A DNA stretch of 64,000 nucleotides from a virus, in IMG/VR virus record IMGVR_UViG_3300045988_174509, one strand, 5' to 3'. Under the pieces are notes generated by a model. That model saw only the letters and a program-made list of their open reading frames with translations. It did not search any database and was not told where the DNA came from. Positions 5,528 to 53,454 of this stretch are shown here, one piece after another. The first letter of the stretch is position 1. Every line of letters begins with the position of its first letter. Both the position numbers and the translations under genes were made by a program.

Positions 5528-5539
5528 TACCTTTGACGC

Positions 5540-9003: not shown

Positions 9004-9011
9004 GCTCTCTT

Positions 9012-16591: not shown

Positions 16592-16628
16592 GCCTACCAT
16601 GCCTCGGTGTGGTAGGCTTTCTTGTATT
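16592..16628 (+). terminator. Intrinsic terminator
   Basis: Stem gcctacca/tggtaggc plus tttcttgtatt. Confidence 0.5.
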
Positions 16629-16675
16629 CGGAGCGCAACACAGCTCCAACCTGTTTACATACCTCATATTACATT

Positions 16676-22600: not shown

Positions 22601-25600
22601 GCCGCCTATGAGAAAGAGCTTGCCGCCATTGTGGGGCGCATCCGTGAGAGCACCAGCGAAGGAGTGATCCTTGGCCTGCGCTCTGGGCTGGACACTGCGC
22701 GGAGATTCATCCGCGACAAGTCCATGCCGCCCAAGAACGATGCGCTGGCCCAGATGCAGGCTCTGATGATAGCACGCCAGCAGGAAGTGAACCAGATCAA
22801 CGAGCAGGTCAAGGCATTCAAGGCCGCTTCACCCGAGTTTGCCGATGGAGTGGACTTGCTCCGCCGCGAAGTAATTGCGAACCTTAACGAGGCTCTGGCC
22901 GGGGAGCTTGACCTTGCCGCTCGCCAGATTTCCCGTGACCTTGCCGAGGGGGAAACCTCTCCGGTAGAACTCCTGAAGGAAATCCGCAACAGCCTCGGGC
23001 TCAAGGATATAGGGAAGCTCGGAGACATGGGTTCCGCCATAGAAAAGGCCGTGAAGAATTACCGCAAGCTGGCCCTGGCCTCCGCTCCTGAAGCGGCGAA
23101 TGCTTTGCACAATATAGCACTGGCCCAGGAACGCGCAGGCCGGGAGATCGCCCAGGCGAACGCCGTCTATGAGGGACGCACCCGCCGTGCTGGCTATGAC
23201 AGCAAGGGGATTTACCATCCTGCCGGGACCATCTACCAGAACCGGGACTTCCGCATTGAGCAGGAACAGCGGCACATGCAGGCCGAGTACCTCAAGAGGA
23301 GGGAGCGCGCCAGCGAATTGCTGAACCAGTATCCGGCCATCAAGCAGAGGCTCACCCGCGCCCGCAAGCAGATTGCCCAGAACCAGTATGACATCTACAG
23401 CTTCCTGGGGAGCGAAGCCGGAAGGCTGAGCGCGGCGGACATGAACTGGCTCCATCGCACCTACCTTGCCGTAGGCGCGGGGAATGCTGACGCTTACCGA
23501 AAGGCCATGATGGAAGCCCTGGAAAATCCTCAAGGCAAGAAGGTTTCCGAGTACCAGCTTGCCCGGATTTACAGTGCCACCCGTGCCTACATTGAAGAAA
23601 ATAATTCCAAGGTGAACGGGTATATCAGCACCGTGGTGGACCGGATGAAGAACTATGCCGCCCTGTATGACCGACTCACTGATTCCGGGATTCAGGTTGA
23701 CGGGAAGCCCTCCACCTACTCCGACCTGTTTAAGGGAATCCCCGGCGTGGAATCCTTACAGCAGGGAATCCTGAAATTCCTGAATGAGAATTACAGTGAA
23801 ATGCAAATCTTGTCGGACCTGAAGCACGGGGACAACATGGTGGAAATCGTGGACAAAGCCCTGGCGGTATCCCGGTATCTGGGAGACCAGCATCCCGGGG
23901 AAAGAAAGAAGCTGAGGGACCAGCTCAACCAGATCAAAAGGCATCAGGCCGACTACGCCAGGGACGCCTTCCTGCTGGAGAGCATGGGGGTAGAAGAGCA
24001 TGACCTCCGGGGGTTTATCACCAGTGCCGAAGACACAGCGGAGCTTGCCGCCCGGCTGGAACAAACCGGATGGGTGGATTCCCGGACGGTCAAGACAATC
24101 ATGGATGCTCCCGAGGCTACCATGAGCCAGCGGGTGACAGCGTTGATAGACTACCTTCGCGCCAAGGCGGACCTTCAGATGCAACGCCTGGGTCTTGGCT
24201 ATACCATTGACCCTGAAAAGCTTACGTCGATGAACCGGACAAGCCTCCGAAAAGGGATGGTAGAACTGGCAAACCAAGCCTTCGCCTCCACCCTCAGCAA
24301 GAAGAGGAGCACGGAGAACCCGCTGGCCCTTCGGAAAAACCTGCCGCTCTCCGAGCGCATCATCCTGGGTGAGCTGGGTGATGCCAGCGTGTCGGAAGCT
24401 ACCGGATTGATTGAAGCATCCCTGTCCTACCAGAAGGATACGCTGGTCAACACCGTCATGAGCGATGAAGCGGCCAACACCTTCCTGAAGCTGGGACTGG
24501 TGACGGCCCGGCCCAAAGGTGATGAGGATGTCCTTCTCTCCTTCAAGAATTCCCACAGCAAGCTCAATGGGACGTATGCCAGCCATGAACTGGCGGACTC
24601 CCTTTACCGAATCTTCAGGCCTACAGATGACGTGATGGCAAACGAAAGCACATGGCCCGGCATCAAGAAATACTGGAGCACCAACTCGGTGGGCACGATC
24701 CAGAAGCTGGGAGGCATGGCGAACATCGCCGTGCTGATCAAGTCCCCGGCTTCCACGCTTCGCAACCTCTATGGTACAGCGATGCAGGGGATCAACTCCG
24801 GCATTTGGTTCCCGGCTTATGGGCTCAAAGAGGTAAGCGGGATGGCCGTTGATCTGGTCCGCATGTGGAAACTGGAAAGGGCGGCCAAGGATAATACGCT
24901 GGCCGGAAGGGAAGCCCAGGAAAAACTCCTGGAAGCTGAAGAACGGTGGTCAAAAAAAATCAAGCACTACTATGACCTTGGCTTGCTGGACAATGATACC
25001 ATGCAGGTGTTCCGCAATCTCTGGAAGAGTGAAGAATTCCAAAAGGCCATAGAAGGAAAGATTGATCTGACCCTGGATGAATCCGATGGGCTTACAGACA
25101 TTGTGGTAGGGGACCGGAAAGAAAGGACGCTGGCAAACCGGACGTTCCGGTTCCTCACTACAGGGATCATGAAGGGGGCGACCGTGGCCTACAGCATCCC
25201 GGATGCCATGGCAAAGATTGCCAACTACACCCATGAGGTACGCAACAGCAGGAACCTGATGGCCGTGCAACTTGAGCGCGCCAAGCTGACGGAAGAAAGC
25301 AAGCGCACCCCATGGCAGAAGGAGCTGGTAGAAGCCAGCGCGGACGAGAATAAATGGAACGCACTGGTGGAACACACCGCGGCGGACCGGACGAAGAACC
25401 TGTTCCCTACGGGGACGCGCACTCCGAAATGGGTGAAGACCGTGGGGCTTGTCGCCCTTCCCTTCTTCATGTTCCAGTATCACACCGCCAACTCGGTGGC
25501 CTACAACCTGGGCTACATGGTGCAGGAATTGCAGGAAGGAACCTGGGCTCTCCGAAATGGGATGACCAAGGAGGGGAGCAAGCTGATGGCCAAGGCTTTG

Positions 25601-26845
25601 AGCCGGGCGGCGGGGACTGCCGCCGCCGTGGTAGCCCAGGAAGAAATCCTCCGCTTCCTCTTCCAGTTCATGGCCCAGGGTGCCCTCAAGCTTCTGGATA
25701 AGGACGATCAGGTCCAGCTGATTACCAACGCAGAAGTCATGAAGACCGCATCCAGGCTCGGACTGATCCCGGACTACGACAAGTTCGGCACCAACCTGGG
25801 GTTCTTCAACAAGGGCACGGGGCGGTGGAGCTACATGAACCTGGAGTATGCCGCTCCGTTTAAGAACGTAGCCTCCCTGGTCAGCAGTGCCTGGAAGATG
25901 GCAACGGCGGAAGATGAAGGAAAGAAAGAAGGCTGGGATGAAATGGAGAACCTGATGGAGAGCACCATAGGGAGCCCCTCCATGCTCCTGTCTCTGATGA
26001 ACACCTACCTATTCGACCCGAACGACAAGTTCAACTACAAGGCCGCGCCGGAAAAATCAGGGAACATCAGCCTTGCGGATGCCGTGGGGAATGCCGCCCT
26101 GATTTCCTTCGGGTTCCAGCCAAGCCTGGGACATGGCTACACCTACAAGCCCCTGGAGCGGATCGCTACGGCGATCAACAAGGAGACTCCCGTCTGGTCT
26201 GCGGTTTCTTCCATCCTCCACCAGAGCTTTGAGGATGATCCCAACAACGTGTGGTATGAAACAGCCCTGAAGCATGCGGGGTTTGGCATGCGCCATGGCA
26301 AGTCCTTTGTGGATGCCGCCGCCAACGGGGTGAAGACCGCCAAGGTTTCCGACAACCACGCCAAGCGGCTCCGTGTTCTCAGTGAAAGGTATCTGGATAT
26401 TCCTATTGACACCCTGAAAGAGTTCACTACCTTTGACATAGCCCAGAGGAAGGAAGCCTATGCAGACCTGGGGAGTACGCTTAACGGGATCAAGGCCCTG
26501 ACTGAAACACTGTACGGAACCACCGCCGGGCGCACTGCCTTCCGGGATATTCTTGACCGGAGCAATGTCAGCCTGAAGACTGCGCGCTGGGCCATGCGCG
26601 GAGTCATGCCGGAGGTGATCACCAAGGACGCAGTAGTGAGTGCCTTTGAACGGCTGGACCGTGAAGCCCGGAAGCCGGGAACCAGTGAAGCCCGGAAGCC
26701 GGGAACCAGTGAAGCCCGGAAGCAGAGAATCCAGGAGCAGAAGAAACTCATCCGCCGGGTTTACCGGGAACGGGGAGTCAAGGTAACAGACCAGATGGAA
26801 TCTGCAAGTACGTATAAAACGTTATTTAAAAATCTGGAGCAATAA
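16676..26845 (+). CDS. Giant (~3,390 aa) Ala-rich coiled-coil protein with an internal HExxH motif; candidate virion-packaged/ejected or tape-measure-like protein
   Basis: Single uninterrupted ORF. N-terminal EAR(A/Q)E(R/K) repeats, a central FIHEAVHLVDQH motif and C-terminal EARKPGTS x2.6 repeats. The ATG at 16676 is preferred over the track's TTG at 16622, which lies inside the upstream terminator. Confidence 0.6.
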   Translation: MAIDFSTLGPIQPGLDARQESQARARTNFAQRQEDRGRTKAVEPLKAMADFDSLLAKELGSLEKTQKTEARQEKTEARAERSEARAERSAERAETSFEQGQKKWDWALNDRAREEANRDLAKITKSSTSGINAQSIEELEDWVKTPETELYDLKTASSDENALGIIASRLGVEKIEGALPTPTTSEDVETPPYFLSRQGLALRPDGSYIVTNKFIDSVARSKADSSKLASAVSKQLNAGVKASNRDGLSSTPITATATEEEIKEMIDTIRSGDKKVHAAVKAIYDKHIPEDKKTQASEAQTETETPEAQEGKTPVGEPGSGGSSADETPGNFTSTVLDEAEWLATNPAKFTELTQQYLNSLVEQGMNAPEVQRAELAGQRAVARENYIRGVETLLERTFQDVDPKEAGEALRNEARVAEKVLDMYGGAPAEALAQIERRTEELAKAHPGNESLRNQDKAKAIYEYLDSVIPGFNASGAEADALQQIVEENIVGATKTPSLNDAATAAMRHYRSSLGQVSDMTGTVMEGATRFNIPGLRYENKSDDEATRNPLEKMTWEPGKGGWKFGFKRSNGSMEDSFSISYEGLRSYMAEHKLNQQDALNSIAFPTTLGDVAYAKDGLLFARNPYTGEVEENATLAMNPTALYDNSLYQKSLEGLRSSGMSDEEIAAVDKKYQDAKARSAAETVQGLLQTYSEMQSMAELTGSETLGKILEPDSSVDFRIFHARMKRDRMSDTFILEQWNDKEEQWDRQVQRVIQGTQRKAVDMGVTAGLAIAQQLNGVLGPRDSAATLSNQWKIVNESREAATRVTQSNLFTEWGTELAFLAVQMAGTGAAGIAGRTAGEALATQGIRRVAAGMALRSQAAATVARPGIAQSAEVAFSRTMEGIVHGATRSWGATAGTQAAIFSQVAPYAYGDIFSTQLDRAIKHAETLPQDQRGAYLSDAQNLANLRATAGAVIVGMASMAINSRAGMNTFITKSVGGKTWVPESIKKFRQGSSTIASKVTGNTTRERLSSFGALSTKEKVLYMGNKLYQGGKLAVEGAAEELTDEFSEWLWTSLVKDGYIAEDQIGTTAEIAAAAVKIAVLGAIGEVTASRLPGARESVPPEILAQAQRADVGIKPEETLHALNAISIDMRTELETKQGTLAQTIATAGDSAVEVLNTNLSEPVKAEYVEGNKAVAAKAGEIVDNISNAPVYVNELAAEVGGEALTPGVLEAWTQNSIVLGAQNVTLLRSFAQNLKEEIATASPEGRARLVENALSNITERMINPTPEKKEIMRSMVDQIAEIYNEAPVELTQVDDSLNFMPTGNETVDVIGEVASMAGPAAVTTGVATEAPAPPIQIPQLPGASALDTNAEVEVLGTRMPVRDIAPVKPEPLESPTAPPLAELTDASLSGPLDSASPEAREWATQVITGLESFDPETAQWITKGREATTLTDAEVARMVTLNQLTGPAAPLTVDDTGRTLVTEPNAIRYNNRAPAEIAGELNDYQSQVLSFMPEKSGDGLALVDRFLSTQEITPQERRVLESVREYLRKNNLGFGVSRIHTDMIESWNAPALVDFADPDSPLMVVNTLFAPVAGDFKNTFIHEAVHLVDQHQRMTNPDYGNQLRSMKLALRENWNELVGILEKESQQAPDNESRLAIETAIEDMAYGLDISEAQAVANNDNEFASVLLSNPVFRHLASQMKEGGESITFEDLSSPATLAALAESVTPPSSFLGRVFESLKNVFNKILGRYKNLEKDNFSLLKDMGEEWTAWKERHSEAARKLDEAAPLDGSRWLIPDDPTAMKNTGYQDAGLILRTQGQQIPTPTADTGTAFSPTRYGFMGEVGGNLGENWFNLTMAGARQAATWFNMGAAKFGYQKAINKLDSQQVPVFTEQDSLRVREQMTAQDMGQRYVIQQVHQIANWVNAMKLKPEEQKSLAIAIRDYVGNTDNLARPKEIQRIYADTQTQLQQAAVDRDRAVAAAKEGVVRTKAAYEKELAAIVGRIRESTSEGVILGLRSGLDTARRFIRDKSMPPKNDALAQMQALMIARQQEVNQINEQVKAFKAASPEFADGVDLLRREVIANLNEALAGELDLAARQISRDLAEGETSPVELLKEIRNSLGLKDIGKLGDMGSAIEKAVKNYRKLALASAPEAANALHNIALAQERAGREIAQANAVYEGRTRRAGYDSKGIYHPAGTIYQNRDFRIEQEQRHMQAEYLKRRERASELLNQYPAIKQRLTRARKQIAQNQYDIYSFLGSEAGRLSAADMNWLHRTYLAVGAGNADAYRKAMMEALENPQGKKVSEYQLARIYSATRAYIEENNSKVNGYISTVVDRMKNYAALYDRLTDSGIQVDGKPSTYSDLFKGIPGVESLQQGILKFLNENYSEMQILSDLKHGDNMVEIVDKALAVSRYLGDQHPGERKKLRDQLNQIKRHQADYARDAFLLESMGVEEHDLRGFITSAEDTAELAARLEQTGWVDSRTVKTIMDAPEATMSQRVTALIDYLRAKADLQMQRLGLGYTIDPEKLTSMNRTSLRKGMVELANQAFASTLSKKRSTENPLALRKNLPLSERIILGELGDASVSEATGLIEASLSYQKDTLVNTVMSDEAANTFLKLGLVTARPKGDEDVLLSFKNSHSKLNGTYASHELADSLYRIFRPTDDVMANESTWPGIKKYWSTNSVGTIQKLGGMANIAVLIKSPASTLRNLYGTAMQGINSGIWFPAYGLKEVSGMAVDLVRMWKLERAAKDNTLAGREAQEKLLEAEERWSKKIKHYYDLGLLDNDTMQVFRNLWKSEEFQKAIEGKIDLTLDESDGLTDIVVGDRKERTLANRTFRFLTTGIMKGATVAYSIPDAMAKIANYTHEVRNSRNLMAVQLERAKLTEESKRTPWQKELVEASADENKWNALVEHTAADRTKNLFPTGTRTPKWVKTVGLVALPFFMFQYHTANSVAYNLGYMVQELQEGTWALRNGMTKEGSKLMAKALSRAAGTAAAVVAQEEILRFLFQFMAQGALKLLDKDDQVQLITNAEVMKTASRLGLIPDYDKFGTNLGFFNKGTGRWSYMNLEYAAPFKNVASLVSSAWKMATAEDEGKKEGWDEMENLMESTIGSPSMLLSLMNTYLFDPNDKFNYKAAPEKSGNISLADAVGNAALISFGFQPSLGHGYTYKPLERIATAINKETPVWSAVSSILHQSFEDDPNNVWYETALKHAGFGMRHGKSFVDAAANGVKTAKVSDNHAKRLRVLSERYLDIPIDTLKEFTTFDIAQRKEAYADLGSTLNGIKALTETLYGTTAGRTAFRDILDRSNVSLKTARWAMRGVMPEVITKDAVVSAFERLDREARKPGTSEARKPGTSEARKQRIQEQKKLIRRVYRERGVKVTDQMESASTYKTLFKNLEQ

Positions 26846-27434: not shown

Positions 27435-27514
27435 CAGGGAGACCTAAAGCCTCCCTGATGAAAGAAAAGGTATGAGGGCCGGGAAGAATTTCTTCCTGGC
27501 TCTCCCTTTTTACA
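27435..27514. terminator. Convergent-gene terminator region (two hairpins)
   Basis: First hairpin cagggag...ctccctg. Second hairpin ccgggaag/cttcctgg followed by ctctcccttttt. Confidence 0.45.
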
Positions 27515-30014: not shown

Positions 30015-30426
30015 GAGTTGCCATTATATCATAGGAGTCAGTTTCTATAATGAGTCCTTTCAAGGCATCACAAATTCTAATATCTTTGAACCTATGAGAA
30101 TAGATTGCCAGCCTCTTCCCTGTCACTAGCTTTTCAACAGCCGCGTCAAAGGCAAGAGCCTTGGCCAATGGAAGGACAGTATCCAAAACAAATCCTTCTT
30201 CCTTTAGTTGAGGATCAAACTTGGCCGGGGCTACCTGAGAATAGAGAACCGAACCATTAGGGAGTCTTGCACACTTTCTTTCCATGAGGGCCCCTTCATC
30301 GTAATCAAAAATGTAGCGGACCGCATAGGAATCTTTTTCCGCGACATGTCGATAAAGGCAATGCACGCCGTTCGGGTTAGTCAGGGCGCAAAGACCCTCT
30401 TTAAATGTATAATGTTTAGTGTCCAT
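29974..30426 (-). CDS. Hypothetical protein (150 aa)
   Basis: ORF. Confidence 0.4.
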   Translation of the reverse strand: MDTKHYTFKEGLCALTNPNGVHCLYRHVAEKDSYAVRYIFDYDEGALMERKCARLPNGSVLYSQVAPAKFDPQLKEEGFVLDTVLPLAKALAFDAAVEKLVTGKRLAIYSHRFKDIRICDALKGLIIETDSYDIMATREKFNNYNFYEFS

Positions 30427-30766
30427 CAGGGTTACGGGTTAGGTTGTCAAAGTATTTTATTCCATCATCAGAAATTATGTAGGCTTTAGGAAAGGTATCA
30501 GGAACTAAAAGGACAAGACCAATGCGCCTCAATGAGCTCAGATACTTTCCAATGCTTGCCCGGTCAACCAGATTGGCCGCGGCAATTTCTTTTACAGTCA
30601 CAGCGGCAGGCTGGAGAAGGATAAAGCAAAGCAGTTTCACTTCCTTGTGCCGGAGTATGCAGTTACGGTCGTAATGGGCAAAGTAATTAAACAGCAGGCG
30701 AGCCTTCGGTTTCACCCGCTCCATTAGGTCCTTCTTTTTTCTCTTCCAGTTTAGCATATGTTTCAA
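30416..30766 (-). CDS. Winged-helix DNA-binding protein
   Basis: AVTVKEIAAANLVDRASIGKYLSSLRRIGLV reads as HTH plus wing. The true start may be the internal Met at 30724. Confidence 0.4.
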   Translation of the reverse strand: MKHMLNWKRKKKDLMERVKPKARLLFNYFAHYDRNCILRHKEVKLLCFILLQPAAVTVKEIAAANLVDRASIGKYLSSLRRIGLVLLVPDTFPKAYIISDDGIKYFDNLTRNPDGH

Positions 30767-31885: not shown

Positions 31886-31997
31886 ATTGTACTAATGGTT
31901 AATAACGTCAAGGAATCCGGGAATCTGGAATTCACGGAACCAGGAGGTCAAAAACTCCTTGGCTTGCATTAAGGTAAGTAACTTCATGATGATTTAT

Positions 31998-32010
31998 GTT
32001 GAGGTTCTAA
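31998..32010 (-). promoter_or_regulatory. Conserved element, variant TTAGAACCTCAAC (- strand)
   Basis: Lies 10 nt upstream of a 31-aa mini-ORF ATG. Confidence 0.4.
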
Positions 32011-32024
32011 CAAGTTCTAGTGGT

Positions 32025-32597
32025 TTATCGCAAGAAGTAGATAGTACATGGGGAACCCGGAATCAGGGAATCAGGGCGCGTCCAGACCTTCAAAGGCTTT
32101 AATACCGAATAGGCGGACCGGACATCGTAAAGCATTTGAGAAAGATACAGGAGCACCTTTTCAAAACTGCTCACTTGAGCGGCCCCGATTACAACATTGC
32201 GGTTCTGGCTTGAGACTTCAATGAAATAACATCCCCGCTCTTCCATCTTGTACACGTCCGCTTTGATCACTTCCTTGAGAGGGAGAGCCAGCTCATTCTT
32301 CTGGGGCTTCCCCGCCCATCTAAGGCCAAGGATATGGGAGGCATGCGGACCAAGAACCTTATCAACCTCCTTCTTTATAAGCTTTGACACTGCATCCATC
32401 ACGATCGTAAGGTCTTCATCCGTGTCAGATGGGGCCGGAGTAATGAATTGATCTATGGCAAGATAATTGGTAGGGGCCTGAAAGGTGCCGGAGAAATGAA
32501 TCCTCGCTTCATATCCCGGCAGGTCTTTGGTGATCTTCTTCCATGCCCCCAAAGCTGCCCGAAGGAATTTCCAATCGGCATCATTAAATTTAATCAT
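32025..32597 (-). CDS. Hypothetical protein (190 aa)
   Basis: ORF preceded (- strand) by the TTAGAATCTCAAC element. Confidence 0.45.
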   Translation of the reverse strand: MIKFNDADWKFLRAALGAWKKITKDLPGYEARIHFSGTFQAPTNYLAIDQFITPAPSDTDEDLTIVMDAVSKLIKKEVDKVLGPHASHILGLRWAGKPQKNELALPLKEVIKADVYKMEERGCYFIEVSSQNRNVVIGAAQVSSFEKVLLYLSQMLYDVRSAYSVLKPLKVWTRPDSLIPGSPCTIYFLR

Positions 32598-32988
32598 GAT
32601 TTTTAATGGCTGTTTTACGTTGAGATTCTAAAGACAGCATTTCTTTTACAAGTTGCCAGCAAGAAAACAGGTATTGAACTACCCTGTCCATCATCTTGAC
32701 TGCTGATAAAAGAAGATGGCTTACAGATACATAAACGAAGAACACGGCAAGCACATTTAAAAGCAGGGCCATTAGCTTGTCTTCGTTGATCAGGTGATGA
32801 ATGCTAAACCCAAAAACACTTCCTTCAATGGCGGCTAGAATCCAGCACCATGATATCCATAATTCAAGAGTCTTGTGAAGGAAATCTCTGAGTTTCCCTG
32901 CCTTCAGGTACAGGCCAAGACAAGCGTTCGCCCGTTCGGGCAATGGAAATCTCAGAAGATACTTGCTCAGAAGTTTATGCGGTTTCAT
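32590..32988 (-). CDS. Membrane protein (132 aa, 3 predicted TM helices)
   Basis: Hydrophobic helices. ATG directly abuts the TTAGAATCTCAAC element. Confidence 0.45.
   Translation of the reverse strand: MKPHKLLSKYLLRFPLPERANACLGLYLKAGKLRDFLHKTLELWISWCWILAAIEGSVFGFSIHHLINEDKLMALLLNVLAVFFVYVSVSHLLLSAVKMMDRVVQYLFSCWQLVKEMLSLESQRKTAIKNHD
32619..32631 (-). promoter_or_regulatory. Conserved element TTAGAATCTCAAC (- strand)
   Basis: Lies 22 nt upstream of the ATG of gene 32025-32597. Confidence 0.45.
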
Positions 32989-33250
32989 GTTGAGATTCTA
33001 AAGGGGTTAAGCACACGTGGATATGCCGGGCGGTTCCCGGGGCTTTGAGCTCCAGCTCAAAGCCCCCTGCCAGTAGCTTGCGGTTTGCTTTCCGCAAGTC
33101 GGCAAGAAGGAACCTGCTGTTTTCTACCAGGATTTTTCTTCTCCCATCAGAAAAAATTTCAATGGCCCCCATGGTGTGATGCGCCTGAAAGAATTCGTTT
33201 AGGATTTCTTTCACTTCCTGTTCTGTCAGTTTATTTGAATGGTAAAGCAT
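32975..33250 (-). CDS. Hypothetical protein (91 aa)
   Basis: ORF. Confidence 0.4.
   Translation of the reverse strand: MLYHSNKLTEQEVKEILNEFFQAHHTMGAIEIFSDGRRKILVENSRFLLADLRKANRKLLAGGFELELKAPGTARHIHVCLTPLESQHETA
32989..33001 (-). promoter_or_regulatory. Conserved element TTAGAATCTCAAC (- strand)
   Basis: Directly abuts the ATG of gene 32590-32988. Confidence 0.45.
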
Positions 33251-33584
33251 GACTCTTTGATCATCTGTAGGGTTGGAATAATTTACAGGGGCTCATAGTG
33301 GTCCCTAAAATAGAACCGCCTGCCCTGAAAGAATCATTCAAAAGATTATCCATGATCTGCTGGCTCTTGATAAAATTGATATGACTCCTTATCAACTTTT
33401 GGGACTCCATTGAAAGGATTCTTGAGCGTAGAATGTGGAAGTTCCCGGCTTAAATGGGTTTTTGGTATTCATGATTATGATTTCTTTCTATTTAGTATTG
33501 GTTAGCGCGGCGATCTTGCCGCATGTCTTCACTGTAGTAAACTGATCTGTTTTTACAAGATATTTTTCAAAAAAATTTTCTTAC

Positions 33585-33599
33585 GTTGAGCTTCTATAA
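33585..33599 (-). promoter_or_regulatory. Conserved element, variant TTATAGAAGCTCAAC (- strand)
   Basis: Lies downstream of gene 33611-34597. Confidence 0.35.
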
Positions 33600-33610
33600 G
33601 TTATGCAATT

Positions 33611-34597
33611 CTATTTCATGTAGAATTTGAATTTTGTCTCACCCTTTTCAGAATCTTCCGTCACTCGGATGCGCTTCAGAAGGAACGGGAAAACTTCGTT
33701 GCACTTGGCTTCCACCTTGTCGAGAATTTCCGTTGGAACTTCAGGCATTTCAGGACTGGGAGATTTCCAGACAAGATAGCCGTAATATTGTGTGAAGGGA
33801 ACAAAGGAAGCACTTGCTCCAACTTCCTTTCCGAGCTCCTCGAATATTGCATTCACGTCCTGACTAAGCACAGAATAAAATTCCTGCATTTTTTCAAGGG
33901 CGTCATCCAAGCAAAGATTCTCTACTTTATGGAACACGTACTGGGAAAGGTTCCCCTTCTCATTTACCACAAGATTTTTATTCAGGGATCGCCACACACA
34001 CACCTTATATTTTCCCGGTGCACTGTCTTCCATGTGCTGAACCGTAAGGAAGAAGGGAGCGGAAGGAATCCTGATTGCCAAGTCACTTTCCAGAATCCGG
34101 GAAGCATGAAGCCTTTCAATGGGAATCCGGGGAACAGAAGTCAGGGGACCAAGGGAGAGAACAATAGAAAGGTTCCGTTTATAATTGTTAAACTTCTCTC
34201 TTGGAGAATTTTCTTGGTAGAACTCTTCTATTTTTTCAATCTCTCCTTCCCGGGAGAAGAACGCAAGCACTCTTTCATGGTCATTTGTTATTTGAGCATG
34301 CGCCTTGCGTGTCTCGAGAGTTGGATTGAAACAATGCGATTCAACCCATACCGAATATTCTCTTGGCTTTTTTAGCCGGAGAATGAGACGGATAGCTCTT
34401 TCATTAGGTTCAAACAAGCCATAGTAGCGAAGTGACAAGGTTTTCATTTCTCCTTCCCGCGGATTTTTCCGCTTAAAGGTGACGCGGAACAACTTTCTAG
34501 GATTGGCTTCAGGGATTCCATAAGGCTTTACGCCGTTCTTCTCCCATTTAACGCTGAAAGAAATATCCATGCCTTCGAGTAATGATTCAGTTTCCAT
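33611..34597 (-). CDS. Hypothetical protein (328 aa)
   Basis: ORF. Confidence 0.45.
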   Translation of the reverse strand: METESLLEGMDISFSVKWEKNGVKPYGIPEANPRKLFRVTFKRKNPREGEMKTLSLRYYGLFEPNERAIRLILRLKKPREYSVWVESHCFNPTLETRKAHAQITNDHERVLAFFSREGEIEKIEEFYQENSPREKFNNYKRNLSIVLSLGPLTSVPRIPIERLHASRILESDLAIRIPSAPFFLTVQHMEDSAPGKYKVCVWRSLNKNLVVNEKGNLSQYVFHKVENLCLDDALEKMQEFYSVLSQDVNAIFEELGKEVGASASFVPFTQYYGYLVWKSPSPEMPEVPTEILDKVEAKCNEVFPFLLKRIRVTEDSEKGETKFKFYMK

Positions 34598-34637
34598 ATT
34601 ATTTTTAGGTTCTATATATTAGAGGTTCTTTTATTTA

Positions 34638-35087
34638 TTAGCGTTCTTCTCTTTCAGTTTTGATCTTTATGCTACCTTCGGAAGGAATTTTAGCGATTCT
34701 AAACGCAAAATAATAGCCTTTATCCGCATCATGGTAAGAAAAGTAATCCTCCAAGCTACTGGTGAAGACCTTTTCCATATTCTCCGTATGTAGCAGGGGG
34801 AGAATGCCCTCTCCTATATAAAACTGAAGAGATTGAACGCCTGCCATTAAATCCGTTTCAGCTATCACCTGATCTTCAATCACTTTCCCGGTTCGTTCTT
34901 CAACAATTTTCCTTAAATTGCATTCAAGAAGATAGCCAAACCATTCCAAAGGATCAGTAAAATATTCATCCGTAGCCGTTTCATTGGCAAGCTTCAAGCA
35001 ATAATCTCTTACATGCTCCGATTTGCTTTGCCTTGCCATGTCAATCAGCTTCCTAATGGCGGCAAGCCTGTATTCATTTATGTTCAT
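34638..35087 (-). CDS. Hypothetical protein (149 aa)
   Basis: ORF. The 5' region carries the conserved element plus a perfect 24-bp palindrome. Confidence 0.45.
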   Translation of the reverse strand: MNINEYRLAAIRKLIDMARQSKSEHVRDYCLKLANETATDEYFTDPLEWFGYLLECNLRKIVEERTGKVIEDQVIAETDLMAGVQSLQFYIGEGILPLLHTENMEKVFTSSLEDYFSYHDADKGYYFAFRIAKIPSEGSIKIKTEREER

Positions 35088-35123
35088 TATATTTAGTCCC
35101 TTTCTACTTGTTTTTTGATTCCG

Positions 35124-35147
35124 GCGGGCAGGAAATTTCCTGCCCGC
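35124..35147. promoter_or_regulatory. Perfect 24-bp palindrome GCGGGCAGGAAATTTCCTGCCCGC
   Basis: Self-complementary sequence in the 5' region of gene 34638-35087. Confidence 0.6.
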
Positions 35148-35162
35148 ATAGAGATTCTAAAA
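35148..35162 (-). promoter_or_regulatory. Conserved element, variant TTTTAGAATCTCTAT (- strand)
   Basis: Lies upstream of the palindrome and gene 34638-35087. Confidence 0.4.
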
Positions 35163-35201
35163 GGAAATGCGTGAGAAAATGCACTGAACTTAAAAACTCC
35201 T

Positions 35202-35426
35202 TCACAAAAGGCGGGCGTTATGCTCTACATACCATTCGGCAGGATAAAGGTCCACACCTCCCCTGACTCCCGGATTCTGTGACTCCCGGAATCCCTGAAG
35301 CAGGGATACAAACATTTCTGGATCACTCATTTCGTGAGTCAATACGGCGGGCGCGGCTTTTTCTTCTATACTAGTGTTCATTTTATGTCTTCTTTCTACT
35401 TGTTTTTTGTTTTTTGATCCGCCCAT
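35202..35426 (-). CDS. Hypothetical small protein (74 aa)
   Basis: ORF. Confidence 0.3.
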   Translation of the reverse strand: MGGSKNKKQVERRHKMNTSIEEKAAPAVLTHEMSDPEMFVSLLQGFRESQNPGVRGGVDLYPAEWYVEHNARLL

Positions 35427-35505
35427 GGGGGCGGGGGCATGAATTTAGATTAGCTTAGTGATTGTATTGTACAATAAAAATAGTAAAGATTTTTGTCATA
35501 CACGT

Positions 35506-35967
35506 TTACAAGTCATCGAACATGGCGGAAAGGCAGGCGTAATTCCTTGAGGGATAAAGGCATTCAAACCCTTGCAAGGGGTAGGTGATTTTGATTCCTT
35601 TGCAATATATGTTTGCACTGCACGACGGAATGTTCAGCATGCGCAACTCCGAAAGAACGGAATTTTTAGCTTGCCTTGCGGCCATTTGCAAGGATGAATC
35701 TGAAAAACTGAAAGGGAACTCCCTGATAAATGACGTTTTGTATCCGGAGTTCTCCAATTCAATGATGATCACCAGCCGGAATTGCGCGCCTTTGGCGTCA
35801 TGATACTCTAGCGGAAGAAACTCCCGGCAATTTTGTGTCATGTTCCACACGTCCAATGCTCCTCTATTCATAAGACTTTGAATCACGGAGGAAGGGGAAC
35901 AGGAAGCAGGGAAAGACTTGGAACGGTGCTTTTCCTTTGTAATGTATGCGTATTCAATAAGTTCCAT
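35506..35967 (-). CDS. Hypothetical protein (153 aa from the ATG at 35967)
   Basis: The track start at 35988 is a TTG lying inside the conserved element. The ATG at 35967 directly follows the element. Confidence 0.45.
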   Translation of the reverse strand: MELIEYAYITKEKHRSKSFPASCSPSSVIQSLMNRGALDVWNMTQNCREFLPLEYHDAKGAQFRLVIIIELENSGYKTSFIREFPFSFSDSSLQMAARQAKNSVLSELRMLNIPSCSANIYCKGIKITYPLQGFECLYPSRNYACLSAMFDDL

Positions 35968-35969
35968 AT

Positions 35970-35984
35970 ATTGAGATTCTATAA
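35970..35984 (-). promoter_or_regulatory. Conserved element, variant TTATAGAATCTCAAT (- strand)
   Basis: Directly abuts the ATG at 35967. Confidence 0.45.
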
Positions 35985-37280
35985 TCAAGATTGTTTCTTT
36001 GTAGACCGCCCCCTTGTATCAAACGCCGGGATATTTAATTTTCTCCTTGCTTTTCCGATAACTTGTATTGATTTGCCTGTTTTATTAGCGACTTCTTTAT
36101 CAGTCATTGTGCCCAGCAGGGATTTAATGTATTCGTCCCCTTCTATTGTTTCTTGCAAGCTTTTTTCCTCACGTAATGCCGGAACATTCAATTTCTGTCT
36201 AATTCTTCTTACTGCCTCGTCATCAATATTAAATTTTTCGGCTATTACTCTATCATAAACTTTCCCAAGCATAGATAAGAGTTTTTTACGTTGGTCCGGT
36301 GAAAATCTTTCTAAAATGCTTTTACTGAAAGGCTTAATTTTGTTCTGTTCTCTAAATTTTTTAATTACATATACGCTGTACCCTGTTTTTTTTGCAATTT
36401 TTAAATCTGATACTCTTCCCAATAAATTAAGAATTATATCCTTGTCCGCATCCTTAATGGGAGCTGGAGCAATTTTTAATTTTCTACGGTTCCGCGCTAC
36501 AACATTAAGCGATATTCCAAGCCTTTCAGCAATTTCGCTATCAGGAATTTTCCCAAGCATGGATAGCATTTCTTCGCGTTTCTCTTCGGGGATTTTAGTA
36601 TCAGATAATGATAGAATGCCCATCTTTTTTCTAATAAGCGCAATTCCTGCCTTGGAATAACCGAATTTTTTAGCAATTTCATCATCCGGGGTCTTTCCAA
36701 GCATGTTAATTAACTCTTCGGGATACTCTTTTTTCTTGTGTGGTTTATTTGGGTCTCGTGGCTGACGGGGTTTACGCGGCCCCCTATATGACTTAATCCC
36801 TAATTTCTTTCTAAGGTAGGCTACTCTGGAATTTGAGTATCCAAACTTCTTGGCACACTCCGAGTCAGGAATTTTTCCGAGCACTGCAATAAGCTCTTCA
36901 TCGTGTTGGATGCGGATTGCTTCAGGGCTGCAATACTTTTTGATACCTAATTTATAGCGTTCAGTCTGGACCGTGACGCGCGCTATTCCGAGTAGCTCGG
37001 CGATTTCCAGGTCAGGTTTTTTGCCCAACATGGACCGCATTTCTTCACGCTGTTCGTGAGAAAGAATGCGGTGAAACCTCTTTTCTCGGTATTTTTCATG
37101 CAATAACTCCATGAGCAATTGCATGTATTCAGGCGTGGGATGTGGTTTTTTAGTATTTAGCCACTTCCAAACAGCATCTTCCGTCACCCGCATCATCTGC
37201 GCGGCCCTTTTTACAGCTTGGGTAGGACTTGGGAGATTGTTGGCCGTTTGAAGCCAGTCGATAAATTCTTGTGCGGTCAT
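35985..37280 (-). CDS. Protein with ~85-aa N-terminal domain plus seven tandem ~46-aa sigma-region-4-like HTH repeats
   Basis: Seven copies of the pattern LG(K/R)xPDxEIAxKxGxSxxxVxxxRxKLxI: ELLGIARVTVQTERYKLGI, KKFGYSNSRVAYLRKKLGI, KKFGYSKAGIALIRKKMGI, ERLGISLNVVARNRRKLKI, KKTGYSVYVIKKFREQNKI, EKFNIDDEAVRRIRQKLNV, NKTGKSIQVIGKARRKLNI. Confidence 0.6.
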   Translation of the reverse strand: MTAQEFIDWLQTANNLPSPTQAVKRAAQMMRVTEDAVWKWLNTKKPHPTPEYMQLLMELLHEKYREKRFHRILSHEQREEMRSMLGKKPDLEIAELLGIARVTVQTERYKLGIKKYCSPEAIRIQHDEELIAVLGKIPDSECAKKFGYSNSRVAYLRKKLGIKSYRGPRKPRQPRDPNKPHKKKEYPEELINMLGKTPDDEIAKKFGYSKAGIALIRKKMGILSLSDTKIPEEKREEMLSMLGKIPDSEIAERLGISLNVVARNRRKLKIAPAPIKDADKDIILNLLGRVSDLKIAKKTGYSVYVIKKFREQNKIKPFSKSILERFSPDQRKKLLSMLGKVYDRVIAEKFNIDDEAVRRIRQKLNVPALREEKSLQETIEGDEYIKSLLGTMTDKEVANKTGKSIQVIGKARRKLNIPAFDTRGRSTKKQS

Positions 37281-37321
37281 GGTGAGAAAGGAGGGGCGGC
37301 AATGCCGCCCCTGGGGGTTAT

Positions 37322-37648
37322 TTAGTGAGCTTCAACGCGGGAAGCGTCCTGCGTCCAGTTGAGGTTTTCTCCTTCAATTTCTTCGCCCGTCATTTGTTCA
37401 AAGACCATGTAGATTTCAACCTTGTTCCCTTCTGCATCATAGCCGGGAGCAGACCATTCTTCCATATAACTGCCGTCTTCGTATTTGTCCGCATAGGAGC
37501 CAGGGAAAACCCTGTTGGTGTATTCCATCTGGCGCGCTGCATAGTAGGTCTTGCCTTCGAACTTGTAGCTGCCAAATTCACGTTCAAGAGCGGTCAGGTT
37601 GATTTCTTCTCCGTCTTCCGTGGTGATGATTTTGTTATCGTTCATCAT
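37322..37648 (-). CDS. Small highly acidic, Tyr-rich protein (108 aa, net charge about -15); candidate DNA-mimic/anti-restriction early protein
   Basis: 24 D/E against 9 K/R. It is the first gene downstream of the strong leftward promoter and has an AAAGGAA Shine-Dalgarno sequence. Confidence 0.45.
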   Translation of the reverse strand: MMNDNKIITTEDGEEINLTALEREFGSYKFEGKTYYAARQMEYTNRVFPGSYADKYEDGSYMEEWSAPGYDAEGNKVEIYMVFEQMTGEEIEGENLNWTQDASRVEAH

Positions 37649-37782
37649 TTTTGTAATTCCTTTCTTTCAGGTTTTATTCTTGGCAGGGCGTTGCGCCCTT
37701 GCATGATTTTTTGATAGCATTACGGAGGGTTCCGTTCAACCGATTTTTTGCAGGGAGCCGGCAAGTGATTTAAAATGAAAGG

Positions 37783-37810
37783 ATTATAATTGTGTCATAC
37801 AAGGTGTAAA
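37783..37810 (-). promoter_or_regulatory. Strong sigma70-type leftward promoter
   Basis: On the - strand: -35 TTTACA, a 16-nt spacer, then a perfect -10 TATAAT. It lies ~125 nt upstream of the acidic-protein gene. Confidence 0.55.
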
Positions 37811-38570
37811 AAAGTGTGAAAAGGTGCTTGCAATGTAAAAATCCGGCATTTGCGGCACAAAAATCCAGCGTCAAAATCAGGCATGGGGGAGTATCGTAAA
37901 AAGTACAATAAGCCATGAAGCCGGGAAACCCGGGTTCCGGGTTCCGGGTTTGGAGGATTAGGCAATAATTGAGGCAGGTGCAAAAGCAGGAATGATTCAT
38001 AAAATTTTATGGCTGGTGTCCCATATTTGAGCCGGATTCCATAAAATTTTATGGAACTTTGGACAGTTTCAGGGTGTCAGGTATAAAATTTTGTAAAAGC
38101 AGGGAGAGGCGGGTGCAGGGCGTCAGGGTAACTTAGAATCAGGGAGTCAGGGGATCAGTTTGGAGGATTAGGCAAGAATTTGAGAAGAAAGGAAGGCCCT
38201 TCTTTTCTTCTCATATCATCAACGTATCATGATATGTTGATATGTTATGATTCACAAGCAAGCCCGCAATTTATACAGGCGTATAAATATGCACCCCTGA
38301 ACCCCTGATTCCGCCCTTCCCTGCACCCCGCTTCACACGTCAAAAAATACAATAACCCCCCTATTTCCGGCTATGGAAAAATTCAAACGTAACATAATGG
38401 ATTGAATCTTAACGTCTAGCACGTTCATACTTCGCATAATATGTGTAATGCAAAATCGGAAGCACGATTCAGGCATAACAAGAAAATACATAAGAAGTTA
38501 TGAAGGAAATTACCCTGAAATTGGAAGCCGATTTCCGCCATACGGGAGGTTTACAGGGCCAGGGGTTCAA

Positions 38571-38613
38571 GGTTAGAGTGGCTCAAAGGTTCAGGGTTCG
38601 AGCAACTCTAACC
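38571..38613. other. Imperfect hairpin
   Basis: Stems ggttagagtggctc / gagcaactctaacc with one mismatch and a 15-nt loop. Confidence 0.4.
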
Positions 38614-38625
38614 CGGAATCAGGAA

Positions 38626-39100
38626 ACATACCACCACGGTTGAGGGGGCTCACGGGTTCAGCGAGTGGAGGTATAAATCTTTGGGTCGGGAATGCCCTGG
38701 AGGAACCATTTTTGGAGAAAGGGGGATGTATGGACCTAGAAGGCGGGTTTACCCCCAGTTGGGTACTCTGTACCGGACCTACCCCAAAACACAGTTTTAG
38801 GCGACCACCCTACATGAAAAAACCGTATTCTGGCATGAGCATGGTTCCCAGGCATGCGTAAAGGGCGGATACCACCACGGGGGAAGGGGTGGAACTTGGG
38901 AACCGGAAAGGGCGGGATCAGGGGTTCAGGGGGTCGGAAAAAATCGGTGAAAACGGAAAAATGGGAGGTATGGACCTAGAAGGCGGGTTTACCCTCTTTC
39001 CGCTACAGAGTACTGGACCGACCCCAAAACGCAGTTTTAGGCGACCACCCTACATGAAAAAACCGTATTCTGGCATGAGCATGGTTCCCAGGCATCCTCG
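38626..39100. repeat. Two tandem ~240-bp degenerate direct repeats
   Basis: Both copies start ATACCACCACGG. They share ggtatggacctagaaggcgggtttaccc and a 75-bp core (ccccaaaac[a/g]cagttttaggcgaccaccctacatgaaaaaaccgtattctggcatgagcatggttcccaggcat) identical except one base. Confidence 0.8.
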
Positions 39101-39298
39101 CGTGCGCATGCGCGTAGGCATGGGCATGGGCTGGCAGGGGTCGGCATACATGTCGGAAGAAAGGTCGGAAAAAGGGTCGGCATGAGCGGGGCTCGCCTAC
39201 GCATACGCGTACGTACGCGCACATGGCCCGCGTCACCCGCGCATGTGTGGGCATGTGCAGGCGTATGCGCTCGCCCGCCTCAGCGCGCCCAGGAAACT
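39100..39298. repeat. GC-rich GCATG-laden imperfect inverted-repeat block containing 4x GTCGG at exact 12-bp phasing
   Basis: cgcgtgcgcatgcgcgtaggcatgggcatgg at 39100-39130 is inverted relative to cgcctacgcatacgcgtacgtacgcgcacatgg at 39193-39225. GTCGG occurs at 39140, 39152, 39164 and 39176. Confidence 0.6.
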
Positions 39299-39400
39299 TT
39301 TATAATTCAATATTATAATAAAACCCATATATATATATATAGTATTTTTTAACTTTTTTATTTTTAGGGTTCTTGTATTGATTTTTAACGAGTTATGAAG
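39299..39400. other. AT-rich block with a (TA)7-8 run; candidate DNA-unwinding element
   Basis: Contains ttttataattcaatattataataaaacccatatatatatatatagtattttttaactttttta. Confidence 0.45.
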
Positions 39401-39495
39401 ACGGATTTTGTGAAGTGAAAAGTCAGAGCCCCTTTTCACATGCCTTGACAAAAATGGAAATATGTATGAATTTGGTCTTTTTTATACTTTAGAAA

Positions 39496-39510
39496 TTAGA
39501 ATGATTCTAA
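39496..39510. promoter_or_regulatory. 15-bp palindrome TTAGAATgATTCTAA (inverted pair of the TTAGAAT half-site)
   Basis: Arms ttagaat/attctaa are perfectly complementary. Confidence 0.5.
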
Positions 39511-39532
39511 AAACTTTTACATACTTTTTTTA

Positions 39533-39735
39533 TCGACATTTTTACGACATTTTTACGACGTTTTTTTGACCCCATTTTTGACCCCATTTTTGACCCCATT
39601 TTTGACCCCATTTTTGACCCCATTTTTGACCCCATTTTTGACCCCATTTTTGACCCCATTTTTGACCCCCTGAATCCGTGATTCCGCCCTCCCGTTCCAC
39701 CTCCATTTTTGACCCCCTGAATCCGTGATTCCGGA
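39533..39735. repeat. Iteron array: 3 x cgacattttta (11 bp), 9 x gaccccattttt (12 bp) and 2 x ccctgaatccgtgattccg (25-bp-class direct repeat)
   Basis: Direct reading. gacccc occurs at 39568, 39580, 39592, 39604, 39616, 39628, 39640, 39652 and 39664, with a tenth copy at 39711. Confidence 0.85.
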
Positions 39736-39779
39736 TACCTCCGGACCCCCGTCACCGGAAACCCCTTTTTATTTTTCTC

Positions 39780-39807
39780 TTGACAGGATTTCCGTCCGGA
39801 TTATCCT
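39780..39807 (+). promoter_or_regulatory. sigma70-type promoter for the primase gene
   Basis: -35 TTGACA at 39780-39785, a 16-nt spacer, then -10 TATCCT. The ~15-nt leader has no Shine-Dalgarno sequence. Confidence 0.45.
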
Positions 39808-43528: not shown

Positions 43529-43924
43529 ATGAAGTATTTAAAAACTGGATCTACTCGCAGGGTTTTTCTCATAGGGAGGCATGCTTTTAAGGTTCCCTTT
43601 GCATGGCCTGGAACCGGGAATGCTTTTTGTGGAATCTTCAGGCGGCTTCGTGATGGCCTCTTTGCAAATTGTTGTGAGATGGTTTACTCCGGAACTAGTT
43701 TCTCAGGAAATGGCGCAGGTTTTGTTTGCAATCCCGTTGTGTTTGCTCTCCCCTGGGGCCTTCTTGTAGTTCAGCGCAGGGCATTGCCTATTGATAATGA
43801 TACCTTTGATACTCTTGAGGAAGCTTGTGCGTGGAGCCCTGTGGAGTATAAGCCGGATAGTTTTGGCTTTGTGGATGGAGAGCTTGTGGCTGTAGATTAT
43901 GGGGCTGGAAGTTTTTATGATTGA
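43529..43924 (+). CDS. Hypothetical protein (131 aa)
   Basis: ORF. Confidence 0.35.
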   Translation: MKYLKTGSTRRVFLIGRHAFKVPFAWPGTGNAFCGIFRRLRDGLFANCCEMVYSGTSFSGNGAGFVCNPVVFALPWGLLVVQRRALPIDNDTFDTLEEACAWSPVEYKPDSFGFVDGELVAVDYGAGSFYD

Positions 43925-43957
43925 CATCCCGCTTCCGGATGGTAGGTTTCCTTTGCT

Positions 43958-44263
43958 ATGAAGACACGCGACATACGCTGGGAAAGGACTATGGAGCGGA
44001 TTATCGCCCGATGGCTTAAAAGAGCCATGCAGTCATTAACAAGCCAGAGGGGGCAAATGTATGAAACTGTTTATATTATACATGATAAAATTCCTCTTTT
44101 CATCAATGTCAACAAGTATGATTACCAAAATTCTCTTCGGTATTTCGACTTGCTTGATTCAGCATTTTTAGTGGACGGCAAGCTTGTAGCCTGCACCCAC
44201 GTATCCCAGACCATACCTCAAACCATTTACATGTCATGCACCTCGAACACGATAACTCAATAG
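43958..44263 (+). CDS. Hypothetical protein (101 aa)
   Basis: ORF. Confidence 0.35.
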   Translation: MKTRDIRWERTMERIIARWLKRAMQSLTSQRGQMYETVYIIHDKIPLFINVNKYDYQNSLRYFDLLDSAFLVDGKLVACTHVSQTIPQTIYMSCTSNTITQ

Positions 44264-53417: not shown

Positions 53418-53445
53418 TTGACGTGAACGTGCCAAATGTTATGTT
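53418..53445 (+). promoter_or_regulatory. sigma70-type promoter giving a near-leaderless mRNA
   Basis: -35 TTGACG, a 16-nt spacer, then -10 TATGTT at 53440-53445. The ATG is at 53455. Confidence 0.45.
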
Positions 53446-53454
53446 CATGTCGCT

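Follow-up and report, generated by a model that had tools for sequence, protein, structure and literature searches.

The stretch of DNA analysed here (the window; 64,000 nucleotides (nt) of IMG/VR record IMGVR_UViG_3300045988_174509) covers most of the ~66–70-kb genome of an uncultured phage, probably of Akkermansia. Its leftward block contains seven genes that are each headed by a copy of the same 12–14-base motif, T-n-TAGAA-N-CT-CAA-Y (Table 1), and none of the seven belongs to a Pfam or PHROG family. An initial annotation had pointed to a recurring element ahead of at least six leftward gene starts, and the counts bear this out. The string TAGAANCTC is absent from the + strand of the whole window and occurs seven times on the - strand, six of these within 31998–35981, the interval to which the motif copies in the window are confined. 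With up to two mismatches allowed, the 13-mer TTAGAATCTCAAC has 7 matches against 1.5 expected in the window, a number reached by none of 100 shuffles, and the core TAGAAYCTC has 6 against 0.97 expected. The degenerate seventh copy, TAGAACCTAAAA, lies 5 nt from the ATG of a gene of 328 amino acids (aa).

Table 1. Coordinates of the motif copies, promoters, hairpins and gene blocks in the window.
Feature	Position	Strand	Remarks
Rightward virion genes	1–27417	+	include the open reading frame (ORF) of 3407 aa
Leftward block	27510 to ~37650	-	
Replication/packaging block	after control region	+	VapE-type primase-helicase, family A DNA polymerase, helicase, PD-(D/E)XK nuclease, large terminase
13-mer TTAGAATCTCAAC, six matches	31998–32010, 32619–32631, 32989–33001, 33585–33597, 35148–35160, 35970–35982	-	
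12-mer TAGAACCTCAAC	31998–32009	-	TGT directly before (extended -10-like); predicted start A 31997
Leader, 10 nt	31997 to ATG 31987	-	opens 31-aa stub of a 204-aa gene, intact in relatives
12-mer TAGAATCTCAAC	32619–32630	-	predicted start G 32618; within 3' end of upstream 132-aa gene
Leader, 21 nt	32618 to ATG 32597	-	no Shine-Dalgarno; 190-aa gene
12-mer TAGAATCTCAAC	32989–33000	-	abuts ATG 32988; 132-aa membrane-like protein
Canonical promoter TTGTAA-N16-TACAGT	33531–33558	-	hairpin GCGGCAAGATCGCCGC (33507–33522) after 8 nt
12-mer TAGAAGCTCAAC	33585–33596	-	predicted start G 33584; then T/A tract, canonical promoter, hairpin
Degenerate 12-mer TAGAACCTAAAA	34603–34614	-	predicted start 34602; ATG 34597, 328-aa gene
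Leader, A-rich	3' of hairpin 35124–35147	-	Shine-Dalgarno-like TAGAAAG 35100–35106; ATG 35087, 149-aa gene
GC-rich stem-loop GCGGGCAGGAAATTTCCTGCCCGC	35124–35147	-	first pair uses the base just after the 12-mer
12-mer TAGAATCTCTAT	35148–35159	-	hairpin 35124–35147 directly after; predicted start 35147
Leader, A-rich	3' of hairpin core 35419–35434	-	TAGAAAG; ATG 35381
Canonical promoter TTGTAC-N16-TAATCT	35447–35474	-	hairpin core 35419–35434 after 8–12 nt; same block, for comparison of geometry
12-mer TAGAATCTCAAT	35970–35981	-	2 nt from ATG 35967, 153-aa gene; predicted start 35969
Strong canonical promoter TTTACA-N16-TATAAT	37783–37810	-	11/12 matches; head of leftward block
Palindrome TTAGAATCATTCTAA = TTAGAAT-C-ATTCTAA	39496–39510		two TTAGAAT half-sites without the CT-CAA part
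Canonical promoters close to ATG	5505–5542, 8978–9014, 43921–43960, ~53418–53457	+	

We compared the window with related phages. Nine related leftward blocks (139 kb) comprise the window, IMG/VR contigs L121 and L122, and six contigs (L137–L142) found by homologs of the 190-aa protein with 75–87% identity; a mosaic relative, L143, whose primase is 62% identical, was analysed apart. Instead of the equal frequency on both strands that would have spoken against a functional motif, the bias in the window (7:0) recurs across the nine blocks, where the gene strand carries 70 copies of TAGAA.CT and the opposite strand 3. An exact-motif scan of viral contigs returned more than 120 matches, mostly single and consistent with chance; several copies occurred only in L121 (= L074), a true relative. 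That the repeat stems from a conserved C-terminal peptide (LESQ) was rejected because only 2/7 copies are translated. A Chi-like or integron attC-like role was rejected as well: the copies are found only ahead of genes within 4 kb, the hairpins are perfect and no recombinase is present.

The distance from the end of the 12-mer to the start codon is 0 nt at ATG 32988, 2 at 35967, 5 at 34597, 10 at 31987 and 21 at 32597, and it reaches 60 nt at 35087, where a hairpin leader intervenes. The element had been described as abutting the ATG at both 32988 and 35967; this holds for 32988, and the copy at 35967 is not strictly abutting because 2 nt separate the 12-mer and the ATG. The zero spacing at the 132-aa gene is shared by all five of its diverged orthologs, and since the predicted start is the A of ATG 32988, the mRNA of this gene would be leaderless. 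Leaderless transcripts, proposed at first for the block at large, are thus predicted for two or three of the seven heads (0, 2 and 5 nt), and the remainder would carry leaders of 10–60 nt, one of these long-leader heads having a 5' hairpin plus a Shine-Dalgarno-like TAGAAAGG. The gene behind the copy at 33585 is decayed in the window and intact, at 230 aa, in relatives; its remnants at 33260–33585 are cut to short ORFs, and the intact versions are found in L138–L142. The sequence at 31892–31987 encodes the 31-aa stub, and the next gene, of 122 aa and motif-headed in relatives, is deleted in the window.

Alignment of the sites redefines the consensus. Numbering the base after the 12-mer +1, base -7, the sixth of TAGAAn, is T in 49%, C in 28%, G in 22% and A in 1% (15 site families), and it switches between orthologous sites, all four bases being found ahead of the 328-aa gene. 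The hexamer first reported as TAGAAT is therefore really TAGAA-N-CT: its TAGAA and the following CT stand, and its sixth base is not conserved. The CT is constant in every 13-mer copy found with at most two mismatches. The position matrix cannot test this invariance, because its sites were picked by the pattern TAGAA.CT, and positions -12 to -8 and -6/-5 are fixed by the search. Among the remaining positions of the 15-family profile, T is found at -14 in 77%, C at -4 in 82%, A at -3 in 80%, A at -2 in 99%, a pyrimidine at -1 in ~70% and T at +2 in 73%. The base at +1, which lies outside the search pattern, is a purine in 15/15 site families (A in 8, G in 7).

The same register is kept by RNA hairpins. 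Across the window and its relatives we found six distinct motif-plus-hairpin heads with unrelated stems (window 35147, two in L138, two in L140 and one in L121). When folded from +1, nucleotide 1 takes part in the first base pair in 6/6, with free energies of -19 to -27 kcal/mol and z scores of -4.0 to -7.3. In the window, one of the seven motif heads is followed directly by such a stem-loop (35124–35147; -21.4 kcal/mol, z -4.3). The remainder of each hairpin leader is open and A-rich, with TAGAAAG(G/A) 9–13 nt ahead of the ATG, and the stem-loops lack a U-tract.

Canonical promoters of the related blocks provide a ruler for this geometry. They carry equivalent hairpin leaders 8–10 nt after the -10 hexamer (TAATCT, TACTCT, TACAGT or TATCAT), which is preceded by a spacer of 16–17 nt and a -35 hexamer reading TTGTAC, TTGCAC, TTGTAA, TTGAAC or TTGCGT. 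Since canonical promoters place their hairpins alike, TAGAAn would occupy the -10 slot. The proposal that TAGAAT sits where a -10 would for a start at the A of the ATG thus survives in its positional part; as a canonical -10 hexamer TAGAAT fails, because its last base is free and C-6 and T-5 are fixed. Reading GAAnCT as the hexamer was rejected: it restores A-11/T-7 but brings the start 4 nt too close and would put starts inside the ATG and the hairpin stems. Canonical promoters on the + strand conform to TTGAC(A/G)-N16/17-TAnnnT without the motif, as the initial annotation had stated for its TTGACA type, and lie with 5–9 nt between the -10 hexamer and the ATG. Near-leaderless starts would therefore be a general habit of the phage; for several rightward genes, this spacing predicts leaderless mRNAs or leaders of 1–3 nt. 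About 10% of the start sites of A. muciniphila are leaderless, and -35/-10 logos have been published for this species (PMC4782308).

The motif is conserved amid unrelated flanks, and at orthologous gene heads it is interchanged with complete promoters. Ahead of the 181–184-aa 'MKDNKNIV' gene, L138 and L140 have the motif and a hairpin, L139 has the motif in mutated form (TAGCAT), L122 has a canonical -35/-10 promoter and a hairpin, and L121 has the leftward-promoter leader. Four different heads occur at the 149-aa gene, all of which keep TAGAAnC(T/C). Gene content between motif copies differs in every relative, and in L143 the motif heads new unknown-family genes, in one case from within a hairpin loop. 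Alignment breakpoints fall at the motif, at 35984/35985, 35159–35170 and 32979/32633. The first is the end of a horizontally acquired helix-turn-helix (HTH) cassette (35984–37645), 2 bp from the copy at 35970–35981, which sits at the 3' junction of this cassette. L121 joins at 35985 and again at 35159–35170, and in L122 and L142, which have different backgrounds, recombination between the copies at 33000 and 32630 has independently removed the 132-aa gene. The copies can serve as crossover points because they share 14–17 identical bases.

We consider it probable that the motif is a lineage-specific promoter lacking a -35 element, with TAGAAn in the -10 slot and transcription starting at the base after the 12-mer. 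RNA polymerase of the host, probably Akkermansia, possibly with a phage-encoded helper, would recognise TAGAAn at -12 to -7, the invariant CT at -6/-5 and the preferred CAA-Y at -4 to -1, and would initiate at the next purine. Three forms of transcript are predicted: those beginning at the AUG or within 2–5 nt of it, leaderless or nearly so; those with a 10–21-nt leader without a Shine-Dalgarno; and those with a stem-loop flush with the 5' end, an A-rich leader and the Shine-Dalgarno-like TAGAAAGG. In an early region that changes fast, each copy would head a single small gene of unknown family and double as a crossover point for the gain, loss and exchange of gene cassettes. The distinct, -35-independent promoter class suggested at the outset is best fitted by position, namely by the +1 purine, the register with ATGs and hairpins and the interchange with canonical promoters.

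Several observations weigh against this promoter reading. The position matrix of 20 site families contains no conserved -35, and only 35976–36005 has a weak -35-like TCTACA-N18. T-12 and A-11 are invariant in the motif sites. At -7, T stands in only about half of the site families, against all ten of the canonical promoters read; in sigma-70-type promoters, -7 is a nearly invariant T. An extended -10 TG at -15/-14 is found only at the head of the 204-aa gene, where all relatives have TAGAAC with TGT or TGC directly upstream, following the extended -10 pattern, which for this one site speaks in favour of a promoter; elsewhere T-14 (77%) occurs without the G. With no -35, and TG at one site, host sigma-A alone might not use these sites. 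A few copies lie within coding sequence (e.g. L143 2921), and the L143 copy in a hairpin loop is not ahead of its hairpin; it fits an attenuator-plus-promoter arrangement like that of the promoter-early stem-loop (PeSL) cassettes discussed below, not a flush 5' hairpin. Three further points are that the argument for RNA 5' ends is positional throughout, that the searches described below found no phage sigma factor, activator or RNA polymerase, and that the motif is absent from another Akkermansia phage family. A generic sigma-70 scan of 27–40.5 kb was uninformative, with 27 sites against 21.6 expected.

Which factor would read the motif was approached through the phage proteins. Searches for an RNA polymerase or sigma factor with Pfam, PHROGs or both (~65 ORFs, including every ORF of at least ~380 aa), with NCBIfam (ten small conserved proteins) and against PDB sequences (the 3407-aa protein and five conserved small proteins) gave no match, and no ORF of 150 aa or longer contains the DxDGD motif. 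This makes the host RNA polymerase the likely enzyme. Because the other Akkermansia phage family lacks the motif, it is not a general host promoter type, and this absence, together with the free -7, the fixed C-6/T-5 and the missing -35 and TG, suggests that the discriminator compensates or that a phage-encoded helper takes part. A small winged-helix protein (30416–30766 or 53742–54035), together with the palindrome at 39496–39510, could plausibly provide a regulatory overlay.

A stronger version of this idea, in which the phage encodes an unrecognised specificity factor with the motif as its cognate promoter, seems unlikely to us. Such a factor, whether a divergent sigma-like protein, a protein re-targeting the host sigma or a polymerase activity hidden in a large protein (e.g. 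the 3407-aa virion protein), would read TAGAA-N-CT at -12 to -5 without T-7 or a -35 and start at the AUG or the 5' hairpin; a very divergent RNA polymerase could have escaped the searches. The HTH-repeat protein (35985–37280), initially named as a possible partner of the motif, does not hold up: its cassette occurs, 98.6% identical, in 11 otherwise unrelated contigs without the motif, and L121 keeps the motif without the cassette at the syntenic place.

The HTH cassette itself (- strand) consists of a 108-aa ORF and a 431-aa protein of repeated HTH modules. At the nucleotide level it shares 96–98.7% identity with 11 viral contigs that are unrelated elsewhere (L123–L133), with homology that begins exactly at the first ATG and stops at the stop codon, and members with at least 90% identity occur in Akkermansia chromosomes. 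The gene pair looks like a very recent horizontal transfer between different Akkermansia phages. Directly downstream of the cassette, L123–L133 carry tandem TATACGAGATTCCAGGGGG in two or three copies, depending on the contig.

A different role for the motif would be that of an operator only, an asymmetric site at which a phage DNA-binding protein blocks or modulates upstream transcription, as stoperators do, without promoter activity of its own. In its favour, the sites are asymmetric, 12–14 bp long, at gene boundaries and in one orientation relative to transcription, with a free central base flanked by invariant blocks, and the phage encodes small winged-helix and HTH proteins. The inverted half-site pair noted earlier at 39496–39510, a further point for this reading, is real: the TTAGAAT half-sites form a perfect palindrome ~17 nt from an origin-like tandem array, conserved in two relatives, L121 and L139. 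A register exact to the base with ATGs, hairpins and the +1 purine, however, is more than an operator requires, and interchange with canonical promoters would not be expected of it. Its sites lie in ~4 kb instead of genome-wide, and the HTH-repeat protein is ruled out by its distribution. A lysogeny-type silencer is unlikely given that the phage was not seen integrated and no integrase was found. We regard an operator without promoter activity as improbable; a regulator half-site inside a promoter can coexist with initiation there.

The array beside the palindrome (39563–39669) is a perfect 12-nt unit, TTTTTGACCCCA, repeated 8.9 times in the manner of the short tandem repeats of origins. Preceded by 3.5 copies of TTTTTACGACA (together 39527–39669), it is flanked by the divergent leftward and rightward promoters and lies just ahead of the primase gene; it probably represents the origin of replication. 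The surrounding 2-kb control region (37700–39800) contains no convincing ORF and no Rfam family match. It includes a 138-nt direct repeat (38718–38855 and 38958–39095, 89% identity), short repeats of the CCCTGA/GGGATCAG type, long inverted repeats and an (AT)7.5 run at 39327–39341, and could encode non-coding RNAs or represent origin or regulatory DNA.

RNA processing would explain the same 5' ends in another way: an endoribonuclease would cut a long RNA initiated at 37783–37810 just 3' of UAGAAnCUnnnn, so that each mRNA freed would carry one gene and start with its AUG or with a protective 5' hairpin. Because the predicted 5' ends are the same, processing accounts equally for the flush hairpins and for an ATG at +1. 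All copies lie in one orientation in one transcription unit behind a strong promoter, and invariant positions around a free base suit sequence-specific recognition. The promoter reading is nonetheless favoured by the -10-like character of the motif (TA at -12/-11, A/T-rich, Y-1/R+1), which stands in the place of the canonical -10 in sister cassettes, and by the swapping of the motif and complete -35/-10 promoters at orthologous heads. A TGn extension at one site would be meaningless in RNA, and the sole nuclease candidate found is the PD-(D/E)XK protein of the replication module. We think RNA processing slightly less credible still than an operator.

That the repeats persist solely by mediating cassette exchange, in the manner of micro-homology 'boundary sequences' and with no role in expression, is very unlikely. 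The breakpoints of relatives do coincide with the motif, including the two independent motif-to-motif deletions, and this would explain the spread of the motif but not its orientation, -10-like composition, +1 purine or flush hairpins; no recombinase was found in the window. In T4-type phages, equivalent recombination behaviour belongs to functional promoters (PMC2839356).

Least credible of all is a translation signal, in which UAGAA would pair with the 3' end of 16S ribosomal RNA (rRNA) and recruit ribosomes like TAGAAAGG in the hairpin leaders: the leader element TAGAAAG(G/A) shares TAGAA and lies 9–13 nt from ATGs in a Shine-Dalgarno-like manner, but the motif-to-ATG spacing varies from 7 to >60 nt, which rules out such a role, and nothing in the leader element corresponds to the invariant CT. 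This second element, (A/G)TAGAAAG(G/A), is found 9–13 nt ahead of hairpin-leader ATGs at 35100–35106, 35392–35398 and 33484–33490 (- strand) and at many sites in L121–L143. It is complementary to the typical ...CCUUUCUA 3' tail of 16S rRNA, which we assume here and which may not be that of the host, and is probably the ribosome-binding site of the hairpin-leader genes. No gene in the window has a classical Shine-Dalgarno (GGAGG-type ribosome-binding site).

The host is very probably Akkermansia, as suggested by sequence matches. When clustered at 90% identity or more, the two-gene HTH cassette groups with WP_418379105.1 [Akkermansia sp.], which lies on a 626-kb contig, and with WP_455564357.1 [Akkermansia massiliensis], and the sole bacterial-genome match is an Akkermansia metagenome-assembled genome. 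The core proteins of the phage occur only on contigs of up to ~70.5 kb, so the phage was not seen integrated; a terminase scan of bacterial genomes gave no match, and no integrase, repressor or recombinase was recognised in the window. GenBank phages gave no match by megablast of 30–40 kb or tblastn of the terminase. At Rfam gathering thresholds there was no match in the whole window, and no tRNAs were found.

Among other features of the genome, the 3407-aa ORF (16622–26845, + strand), for which Pfam, PHROG and PDB gave no match, has a G+C content of 57–59% against ~43% in the early block, a HEAVH (zincin-like) motif near residue 1605 and orthologs of 3376–3381 aa. Two facing hairpins lie at the meeting point of the virion and leftward blocks (27435–27504). 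The + strand hairpin (27474–27504), of 14 pairs followed by a T-run, looks like an intrinsic terminator, and the - strand hairpin (27457–27435) has a weak T-rich tail only. L143 carries an IS605-family OrfB/TnpB (Cas12f-like) gene at 16594–17790, between the helicase and PD-(D/E)XK nuclease genes, that is absent from the window.

Akkermansia is a health-associated gut bacterium, and the gene expression of its phages is almost uncharted. Our literature search found a single paper on Akkermansia start sites or phage transcription, the 2016 Cappable-seq study (PMC4782308), and no isolate or transcriptome of an Akkermansia phage. The main interest of the motif is that it offers a first testable picture of transcription in an Akkermansia phage, with seven predicted start sites at single-base resolution. 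A compact promoter architecture of ~14 bp could serve Akkermansia genetic tools, and the blocks described here would be a clean example outside T4 of promoter cassettes that double as crossover points for accessory-gene shuffling. If the -7/-6/-5 pattern reflects a phage-encoded factor, it would represent a new way to redirect host RNA polymerase, and a dedicated specificity factor would constitute a new mode of promoter recognition in a phage of a Verrucomicrobial gut symbiont.

The motif shares features with several known systems. Promoters of T7/T3/SP6-type single-subunit RNA polymerases span 17–23 bp and need the phage RNA polymerase; like them, the motif forms a contiguous conserved block to -1 with predicted initiation at a purine, but no RNA polymerase of known type was detectable among the searched ORFs. 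The stoperators of cluster A mycobacteriophages (bound by L5 gp71) are 13-bp asymmetric, multicopy sites at gene boundaries in one orientation to transcription, a description that the motif shares. Stoperators are spread through a temperate genome, at no set distance from start codons or from the 5' ends of transcripts, whereas the motif is confined to 4 kb of a phage without sign of lysogeny. Phage promoters independent of a -35 include the extended -10 class (TGnTATAAT), the T4 late promoters (TATAAATA, read with gp55/gp33/gp45) and the middle and late promoters of Thermus phage P23-45. In these, as proposed for the motif, a block of 8–12 bp around -10 suffices for one gene set without a -35. 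The difference lies in the unrelated TAGAA-N-CT, in the TG found at one site and in the lack of a gp55-like or other factor among the proteins searched; moreover, the genes here look early and accessory, not late and structural.

The closest likeness is to the PeSL cassettes of T4-type phages (Arbiol et al. 2010, PMC2839356; Comeau et al. 2014, PMC4122927). Both are, on the reading favoured here, short, repeated promoter-plus-stem-loop cassettes directly ahead of unknown-family genes in hyperplastic early regions, and in both, recombination between copies leads to insertions, deletions and replacements among close relatives. PeSLs have a full sigma-70 -35/-10 and an A/T-rich upstream region, whereas the motif has no -35, a free -7 and a fixed CT at -6/-5. 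PeSL stem-loops are terminators; here, most hairpins look like 5' stabilisers instead, because they follow the predicted start and have no U-tract. Promoter activity and mini-circles have been demonstrated for PeSLs, and the motif is known from its sequence. Most likely, we infer, the motif is a lineage-specific version of this kind of phage regulatory cassette, at which host RNA polymerase would initiate, possibly with a phage-encoded helper.

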